In this document: piece after piece, positions 44,875-46,608 of the stretch
How positions within the stretch are numbered: position 1 is the first letter of the stretch
Layout: each line of letters begins with the position of its first letter
Origin: Eledone cirrhosa
Taxonomy: Eukaryota
NCBI GenBank assembly: GCA_964016885.1
Contig: OZ024741.1
Coordinates: 300,762,001-300,826,000, forward strand
Length of the DNA stretch: 64,000 bases
Direction: 5' to 3'
Position numbers and translations under genes: made by a program
The notes under the pieces: generated by a model
What the model was told of the DNA's origin: nothing
Seen by the model: only the letters and a program-made list of their open reading frames with translations
Database searches by the model: none

Positions 44875-45422
44875 AATATGGTTTTATAAATATAGTTTCC
44901 ATTTATTTAATATCGTATATATATATGTATATATATATATATATATATATATATGTATATATATATATATATATATATATATATATATATACACACACAC
45001 ATATATATATATATATATATATATATATATATATATATATATATATATAAATGGAATACAATGAAATGAAATTTCATTTCTCACTCTTAGTACGGCACTT
45101 ACTTAAATGTAAGTATGTATGTATACGTACATGCATATATGTATACAGACGTACAGTAGCATGCATATATATATATATATATATATATATATATATATAT
45201 ATATATATATATATATATATATATATATATATATATATATATATATATATATATATATATACATACAGGCACACATATATATATATATATGCACGTATCA
45301 GTTTACCGAACATTTATTATAATGTTCGCTTTTTTCGTTTGTAAACAAACAGACAGCCTGATTTACGCCGTACAGTGTTCAGGCAACCACGTCACCTTTT
45401 TGTTAAACACTGATACAGGAAC

Positions 45423-45461
45423 GATGTACTAGTTTCAAGCTTGTTAGCTATCGTCAGCACC
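45423..45461 (-). ncRNA. Minimal hammerhead ribozyme
   Basis: Minus strand: ggtg CTGACGA tagc-taacaa-gctt GAAA ctag TA catc. Confidence 0.8.
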
Positions 45462-45615
45462 GTATACCTTTCTACCAGATGGTTGAACGTTCGAAAGTAT
45501 ATTCTTTCCTTATGAAAATTAACGGCTGAGCAGCCTAATTTGCATATGGAGTGAGTTCAGTCGGCCAGGCGCACCGAAAACGATAAATGGATTAGCATCT
45601 GGCAGAAAGGTATAC

Positions 45616-45654
45616 GGTGCTGACGATAGCTAACAAGCTTGAAACTAGTACATC
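45616..45654 (+). ncRNA. Minimal hammerhead ribozyme
   Basis: ggtg CTGACGA tagc-taacaa-gctt GAAA ctag TA catc, with an ACTAGT palindromic stem III. Confidence 0.8.
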
Positions 45655-46608
45655 TTTCCTGTGTCAGTGTTGAACAAAAAGGTGACGTGGTTGCCTGAAC
45701 ACTGTACGGCGTAAATCAGGCTGTCTGTTTGTTTACAAACGAACAAAGCGAACATTATAATAAATGTTCGGTAAACTTATACGTGCATATATATATATGT
45801 GTGCCTGTATGTATATATATATATATATATATATATATATATATATATATATATATGCATGCTACTGTACGTCTGTATACATATATGTATGTACGTATAC
45901 ATACATACATACTTACATTTAAGTAAGTGCCGTACTGAGAGTGAGAAATGAAATTTCATTTCATTCTATTCCATTTATCGTTTTCGGTGCGCCTGGCCGA
46001 CTGAACTCACTCGATATACAAATTAGGCTGCTCAGCCGTTAATTTTCATAAGGAAAGTATATACTTTCGAACGTTCAACCATCTGTGCCTGTATGTATAT
46101 ATATATAAGAACGGAAAGGACTCTATATATATATATATATATATATATACAGAACGGAAAGGACTCTATATTGCAATCACAGACTCAAGGCTACGTTCTC
46201 GAAATACAAACCTGGCTTGATTTGATCCTGCGACTTCTGCTTTCCTCTATCTTCCTTCTACCTCCTCTATCTGTCCCCATGGATTATTGCTATGCCTTCT
46301 ATTGACCACATCTCCCCTATTCAACATCTCCTCCTACATACTTTACAAGTCACTCGGCCTAATCTCCCCTGCCTCCATCTATCATAGATTATAAACCTAT
46401 CAACGTCTACCATCTCCCTAGCACACACACAGTTGGACTAGTCCATATCTAGACTTCATTATCGTATTTTATCCTCCCCTCTGTTTTACCTCAACAACCA
46501 TGAAAAAAAAACCTATCTCTCTCGTCTTTGTCACATCCTCCTTCTTCTCTACTTCAACTTCACATGAATTCCTATAAAAACAGGAACATTCTGGTACGGT
46601 AAACATAA

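Follow-up and report, generated by a model that had tools for sequence, protein, structure and literature searches.

The window analysed here is a 64,000-nucleotide stretch of the Eledone cirrhosa genome (contig OZ024741.1, forward strand, positions 300,762,001 to 300,826,000), and the feature under study is an insertion of two inverted arms set in TA microsatellite sequence. On its left lies the target microsatellite (44916–45046), recognised in the sequence as (TA)n with a short CA interruption, followed by arm A (45047–45591), which has its hammerhead sense on the minus strand and whose inferred priming site, site A (the RNA's 3′ end), abuts the TA tract at 45047. Arm A carries ATAAATGGA at both start and end, has a period of 536 nt and comprises 1.02 turns of the unit. 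A head-to-head (5′-to-5′) joint with four extra bases (45592–45595) connects it to the inverted main part of arm B (45596–46085, hammerhead sense on the plus strand), which has CATCTG at both start and end and a period of 484 nt, comprises 1.01 turns, and crosses the point that bounds arm A. These two inverted, differently permuted turns had already been recognised in a sequence-only reading of the locus, as had the cause of the difference in arm length, a net 52 nt that corresponds to the length of TA/GTAT repeats. In the non-microsatellite blocks the arms differ by 10 substitutions, nearly all of them private. The earlier statement that no ORF is present also stands, as the ORFs of at least 40 aa across the insertion are only microsatellite read-throughs, the longest of 97 aa.

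The right boundary, formerly placed at 46085, had to be moved. Positions 46086–46107 (plus strand) hold a further piece of the unit (TGCCTGTATG and its TA run), so the second CATCTG marks an internal jump and not a terminus. This end piece derives from the internal TA block, is joined after the jump with a 2-nt microhomology, and contains the true right end, which lies in a TA run. The left end at 45047 is the commonest fixed end of the family rather than an arbitrary permutation. Three further features lie on the plus strand of arm B: a TA-rich block (45787–45921), self-complementary in the circular fold and with TA runs of variable length, in keeping with the variation in unit length between loci; site B (45908–45921), the second preferred 3′ end of family copies in the end histogram, which is located at a small hairpin and through which arm B reads; and the “tail” (45922–45978), the roughly 60 nt between sites B and A, which in a typical insertion is found at one outer end only. 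Site A follows position 45978, and in run X1 loose TA ends occur after this position in 34 contigs. Just to the right of the insertion, at 46108–46170, a 19-nt direct repeat flanks a TA run.

Both arms contain the same 31-nt type I hammerhead core (CUGACGA, stem II, GAAA, the palindromic CUAG, and UA), identified by our own descriptor search, which agrees with the identical minimal hammerhead proposed earlier for each arm. The motif is located at 45421–45463 on the minus strand in arm A, with predicted cleavage between 45427 and 45426, and at 45614–45656 on the plus strand in arm B, where stem I pairs 45614–45619 with 45651–45656 and cleavage is predicted after 45650. Stem II of the core has four base pairs with a U-U at its base. 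Searches against Rfam in gathering and E-value modes gave no hammerhead match, returning only TA-repeat noise. When the 12 hammerhead pairs were scored in 36 copies from all subfamilies, 99.3% of the cells were paired, and one stem I pair was seen as G-U, U-G and A-U, with changes on both sides, a covariation that rests on one or two lineage events. Core mutations in the copies (31/2,016) are only slightly below those in the rest of the unit (1,148/53,200), a difference of the size expected for dead copies.

The predicted circular fold of the unit is 65% paired (−150 kcal/mol), and for its unique part the fold is better than those of 40 shuffled sequences (z −3.1). In the consensus fold stem I is extended into a long helix across the cut, which would hold the monomer ends for ligation. 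The isolated monomer motif is predicted to favour a core-blocking fold (−8.7 vs. −3.8 kcal/mol), and the palindromic stem III, for which pairing between two copies was modelled, points to a dimer as the active form. Metazoan type I motifs have been described as working as dimers with low activity (PMC4209133), and a recent preprint reports cleavage in vitro for one of nine Xenopus retrozyme dimers, the other eight not being cleaved (bioRxiv 10.64898/2026.07.22.740005).

The exact 31-nt core occurs 13,428 times in the 3.0-Gb genome, and a 300-base query from the window returned 3,025 first-look candidates. The non-coding unit is about 450 nt long, ranging between loci from 420 to 556 nt mainly through its TA runs, and its subfamilies are 83–95% alike. 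Loci were mapped onto a circular reference whose numbering starts at the predicted cut. They comprised the 30 best hits with 12 longer stretches, a sample in which long, similar copies are over-represented; 60 loci taken in their order along the chromosomes, each with the 20-mer adjoining the left end of the window insertion; 20 further stretches picked for arrays or pairs; 40 loci in order, each with the hammerhead core; and 20 loci picked by a variant. Before counting, loci that duplicated one another by overlap were removed, as were pieces belonging to the same long array. The unit closes on itself, without internal domain or LTRs, and its many-unit arrays hold no ORF. The window copy has no two hammerheads on the same strand; elsewhere in the genome, arrays of 20 to >40 units carry the unit in tandem with consecutive hammerheads.

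Long arrays of 17 to >40 units were found at L154–L156 (G000:C1, about 70.056–70.077 Mb), L082/L157, L232 and L215. Some of them (L156, L232) show higher-order patterns typical of unequal crossing-over, suggesting later satellite-like growth, and at L081 (396–8507) unit arrays alternate with a 90-nt foreign spacer, forming a composite higher-order repeat. Distant relatives of the unit, with the same motif order and different hammerheads, are present at L233 (588–942), L197 (5098–5357) and L173 (945–1198); they are ORF-less where seen and form a clan of related retrozyme families. In run X4 (organism B), a single contig of 478 nt is about 97% alike to 45596–46079, representing one whole unit and crossing the unit junction, and no long match was found in this run to a neighbouring 10.9-kb stretch; the run lacks the neighbouring repeats. 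As the kind of run is not on record, this contig could represent RNA, another species or carry-over, and it carries no weight in the interpretation below.

Across the sampled loci, RNA-sense 3′ ends cluster at site A (after 45978 in window numbering) and at site B (about 45908–45921), about 60 nt further upstream; a smaller group of ends falls in the TA run inside the unit. Genome-wide, the site-A 20-mer has 3,547 exact matches, 1,497 of which run straight into ATA and 1,653 of which read on into the unit. The position of site A, just 5′ of a conserved hairpin, is conserved in subfamilies with differing preceding bases. Among 73 head-to-head insertions, a set partly chosen by site A, 49 have the ends A+B, one A+A and none B+B, the remaining 23 involving another end; in a set not chosen by site A the combination A+B was found in 15 of 20, B+B in two and A+A in none. 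The two arms of the window had been taken for arbitrary permutations of the unit, each just over one turn long. This argument does not hold, as the outer 3′ ends fall at two preferred priming sites. The 5′ ends are spread round the unit. Arm lengths range from 0.06 to 9.3 units, 64 of 108 arms being shorter than 0.95 units and 33 longer than 1.10; since only 11 lie between 0.95 and 1.10, the two near-unit arms of the window are a matter of chance. The way the query was designed accounts for a pile-up just above one unit among the first 30 loci, and a length just over one unit was rejected as a rule.

The layout is strongly polar. The 60 loci in chromosome order contain 68 clusters, of which 39 are head-to-head, 28 of single orientation, one complex and none tail-to-tail, and in the 40 hammerhead-anchored loci all 16 close hammerhead pairs are divergent, none being convergent. 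TA-rich sequence adjoins both outer ends in 50 of 72 head-to-head insertions and one end in another 20 (TA at one or both ends in 70/72), against a background of 17% per side. Joints, placed approximately from alignment ends, show a microhomology of 1–8 nt in 30 of 72 cases and up to 10 extra bases in 25. No target-site duplication was discernible within the TA sequence. At L003 (about 1079) no TA lies between the left arm and a Neptune-like untranslated region, to which the arm is joined directly, possibly through a template switch or a later deletion.

These data also bear on the proposal that the family is a DNA-level satellite whose inverted pairs arose by fold-back replication or break repair in TA tracts. 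The higher-order patterns of the long arrays L156 and L232 and the palindrome-rich unit are in line with it, and it may hold for the later growth of long arrays. It leaves unexplained, however, the fixed A+B ends, the 16-to-0 head-to-head polarity and the joints between unrelated unit positions, and for the dispersed copies it is largely refuted; as an account of the family we regard it as very improbable.

The family resembles the non-LTR retrozymes (PMC7229834; bioRxiv 10.64898/2026.07.22.740005) in its ORF-less unit of a few hundred bases, its type I hammerhead and its range from monomers to long tandems, as well as in its thousands of copies, low GC content, self-paired predicted circle and co-occurring PLEs, and it shares with the axolotl HHR_Amex2 the U-U at the base of stem II. 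Unlike the non-LTR retrozymes as described in the text of these papers, most insertions here form head-to-head pairs whose two fixed ends lie in (TA)n, the unit contains a TA block of variable length, and no homologous PLE terminal repeat was found in the 40 PLE loci examined. It differs from the plant LTR retrozymes, with their type III hammerhead in LTRs and 4-bp target duplication, in its type I topology and the lack of LTRs. Retrozyme circles have been demonstrated in coral, mussel and axolotl, and the circle model put forward in the sequence-only reading had in fact already been published, without this being noticed there, as the proposed life cycle of non-LTR retrozymes (Cervera and de la Pena 2020, PMC7229834); for PLEs a circle model was proposed in 2014 (PMC4209133). 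As to the carrier, a 2020 review describes the repeats as showing no motif that points to one (PMC7761336), while Li, Clavereau and Pollet (bioRxiv 10.64898/2026.07.22.740005), who in 2026 made the case for retrozymes as non-autonomous derivatives of PLEs, leave the mechanism open. Homology to a PLE terminal repeat is known for 24 of 57 Xenopus families and is not universal.

The head-to-head layout with a tail at one end is a known PLE insertion signature, a point that the earlier reading had missed. PLE insertions have been reported to include partial tandems and an inverted 5′-truncated copy, often with the tail at one end only and with a bias to microsatellites (PMC8557442), and a PLE protein in purified form has been shown to nick both strands in AT-rich DNA, to extend them, and to start at two internal positions of the RNA, one at each limit of the tail (PMC11167929). 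The family shows the corresponding features, namely the inverted 5′-joined copy, two internal 3′ ends, the one-sided tail and the TA bias. Together with the EN+ PLEs Neptune, Naiad and Poseidon (Craig et al. 2021, PMC8557442; Frangieh et al. 2024, PMC11167929) it thus has partial tandems, an inverted 5′-truncated copy, a tail confined to one end, a pair of internal start sites, targets that are AT-rich or (TA)n, and no discernible target duplication. It differs from them, as far as they are described in these papers, in having no RT/GIY-YIG ORF, a tail of about 60 nt instead of 30–40, and arms that can run through several complete turns. With non-autonomous Chlamys PLEs such as MRC1 it shares the non-autonomous state and multicopy head-to-tail insertions by PLE machinery; those elements, in contrast, resemble an autonomous partner at their 3′ end and belong to a clade described as mostly without hammerheads (PMC8557442).

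Potential donors of the enzymes are abundant, the genome being rich in PLEs (10,596 GIY-YIG candidates, 150 of them scored). ORFs with RT and GIY-YIG are present and bear a cysteine linker like those reported from Neptune and Nematis, and the 3′ end of one PLE family runs into (TA)n. A partner PLE with a homologous terminal repeat was found in none of 40 PLE loci scanned by blastn, descriptor and nhmmer, out of >10,000 candidates. A diverged relative near L008, considered as such a partner, proved to be another ORF-less head-to-head element.

The copies might be read instead as 5′-truncated terminal repeats of an autonomous PLE and not as an independent retrozyme. PLE terminal repeats are reported to carry such minimal hammerheads and to occur as close opposite-strand pairs (PMC4209133), and the anatomy of the insertions would be identical. 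Unlike an autonomous PLE, however, the family has no RT and GIY-YIG ORF between terminal repeats, the 1,653 copies mentioned above read from site A into the next unit, and many-unit arrays occur without ORF. Attachment of all copies to a PLE ORF, which would have spoken against the earlier interpretation, was not seen either: any PLE coding piece was present in only 5 of 172 unit loci, and the PLE sample contained two unit copies in the neighbourhood of PLE ORFs, each a separate insertion into a TA tract. This origin is therefore quite improbable, and an ORF-less non-LTR retrozyme that bears a PLE insertion signature is the likely identity of the family.

Several observations indicate that the two arms of an insertion were copied from one RNA. 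Both arms received the same subfamily call in 36 of 39 insertions, with three ambiguous and none clearly mixed, although this concordance could also reflect a single dominant source per germ cell. The window arms have in common two variants that are rare within their subfamily, and the arms of L129 share 21 non-consensus bases and differ at two. In addition, A arms stop at site B more often than expected (7/48 vs. 2.4, p 0.009, a post hoc comparison), which could also be due to pausing at its hairpin. These observations lead us to infer that both DNA ends are primed on the same RNA by a single PLE complex. In the twin priming of L1, the second DNA end primes internally on the same RNA, which yields a 5′-to-5′ inversion with a microhomology joint; the second site varies in position there, and the arms cover separate stretches of the template. 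In the present family, unlike in L1, both sites are fixed and the arms overlap by up to several units. Taken together, membership of the retrozyme class combined with PLE-type twin priming is very probable.

The form of the template is a separate question. A linear monomer cut by the hammerhead is excluded as the main template, since the 5′ ends do not pile up at the predicted cut (6 of 146 within 13 nt, 4.3 expected) and since the 260 crossings of the cut show no deleted base among 2,598 aligned within 5 nt of it, against 309/87,927 elsewhere. Units within one insertion were alike when inserted: in 19 insertions, passes through the same unit differ at 190 of 4,504 sites (4.2%) and passes through different units at 600 of 12,445 (4.8%; odds ratio 0.95, p 0.88). 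An apparently strong same-unit signal at L196 was at least largely an alignment artefact, and a variant at unit position 328 in arm B, considered as a marker of a second template, was dismissed as a recurrent mutation (178 vs. 8,360 copies). Young arrays are nearly uniform, with 1.5 changes per 340 nt over the nine units of both arms at L178, and 1.9 over six units at L177, where the nearest other copy is six changes away; at L220, the change within the array is one, against seven to the nearest other copy. Old arrays radiate from a single haplotype, and altogether 21 arrays represent about a dozen distinct haplotypes, which means that new variants repeatedly reach all units. Such haplotype-uniform arrays need repeated passage through one unit, and a circle provides this in one step.

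The same element could also have been twin-primed by PLE enzymes on an uncleaved linear multimer transcribed from the genomic arrays, with the hammerhead as a passenger or used elsewhere. In the in vitro study of one PLE, insertion took place mainly from uncleaved RNA, and mutating the hammerhead left insertion unaffected (PMC11167929). The arrays of 20 to >40 units are possible sources, scar-free read-through of the cleavage site fits equally, and a homogeneous multimer predicts most of the same DNA patterns. At L225, both arms carry one variant on a single unit and lack it on the following one, which is the pattern expected from a mixed linear template; L220 and L011, judged on few sites, tend in this direction too. 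On the other hand, the long arrays sampled (L082, L156, L215, L232) are internally diverged, with 11–19 changes per 340 nt, whereas young insertions of 6–9 units are near-uniform; same-unit passes show no overall excess similarity; and each of the dozen or so haplotypes would need a fresh homogeneous source array. We consider the multimer unlikely, though clearly a stronger contender than the two alternatives above. Given the retrozyme class and twin priming, the template was probably a circle.

The earlier proposal of reverse transcription from a circular or concatemeric hammerhead RNA is thus retained as the best reading, although its argument from permutation fails and better support comes from the read-through and the arrays of other copies. 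The window copy cannot decide between circle and multimer, as it is too old, its arms differing at 10 sites with nearly all changes private; taken singly it is an ordinary copy, and the value lies in the statistics of the family. For the insertion as a whole, we favour, with some reserve, a retrozyme inserted into a TA microsatellite by borrowed PLE enzymes and twin-primed on one probably circular RNA.

In the series of events envisaged, tandem copies would be transcribed and their hammerheads would cut as dimers via the palindromic stem III, after which the monomer would be ligated to a circle, its ends kept together by the predicted long helix across the cut. By analogy with PLE biochemistry, the PLE protein would nick both strands in (TA)n, and each 3′ end would prime cDNA synthesis, the two starts lying at internal RNA sites separated by about 60 nt. 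This would leave the outer ends at A and B, flush with TA, and arms of 0.06 to more than nine units that are scar-free across the cleavage site, as seen at the DNA level. The two cDNA ends would finally be joined by microhomology or a few extra bases into a head-to-head pair. In the window copy, the right cDNA may have begun in the TA block of the unit itself, or may have lost the stretch up to site B, and it would have jumped once. In a rolling-circle version a dimeric PLE protein would grip the circle and each enzyme would roll round independently from its fixed site. That the family as a whole is a genome-wide record of such rolling-circle twin priming on one circular ribozyme RNA is a proposition for which we see the chances as evenly balanced.

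Retrozyme circles were already known, and PLEs have so far been proposed carriers of retrozymes. The present family adds an ORF-less retrozyme with the full PLE insertion signature in thousands of copies and two mapped start sites on a 450-nt RNA. The A+B end rule, twin priming or head-to-head insertion was not found for any retrozyme in the literature searched, supplements and subscription papers lying outside that search. Two questions become directly testable in vitro, namely whether PLEs mobilise RNA in trans and whether the template is a circle or an uncleaved multimer. If rolling-circle twin priming is true, retrozyme circles would be real transposition templates, tied to PLEs by mechanism and not by co-occurrence, and the one-sided tail and inverted copies of PLEs would be explained as a single event.

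The window contains several other elements. Another ORF-less element, also very abundant, occupies 44496–44915. It is flanked by TA, has inverted ends and a hammerhead-like motif at 44818, and shares TTCCATTTAT at its end with site A; it has matches in 26 fetched loci and is deeper than the window insertion in run X1. A PLE-like RT element is present at 40809–44463 (+), 38970–40362 (+) and 48553–50158 (−); it is broken and has inverted as well as partial tandem copies. The remnant at 40.8–44.46 kb is separated from the window insertion by TA tracts and another element, and the inverted PLE-like copy lies on the far side of the insertion, so that nested insertions seem to have accumulated in the TA tract. 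At 736–3069 (+) and 7031–8813 (−) lie the remnants of two Neptune-like PLE ORFs. A further hammerhead-like motif is visible near 44228, and the descriptor search located others at 5222 (−), 9811 (+) and 34437 (−). Finally, 37153–38984 contains a further head-to-head family, which is partly tandem and has a 556-nt period.
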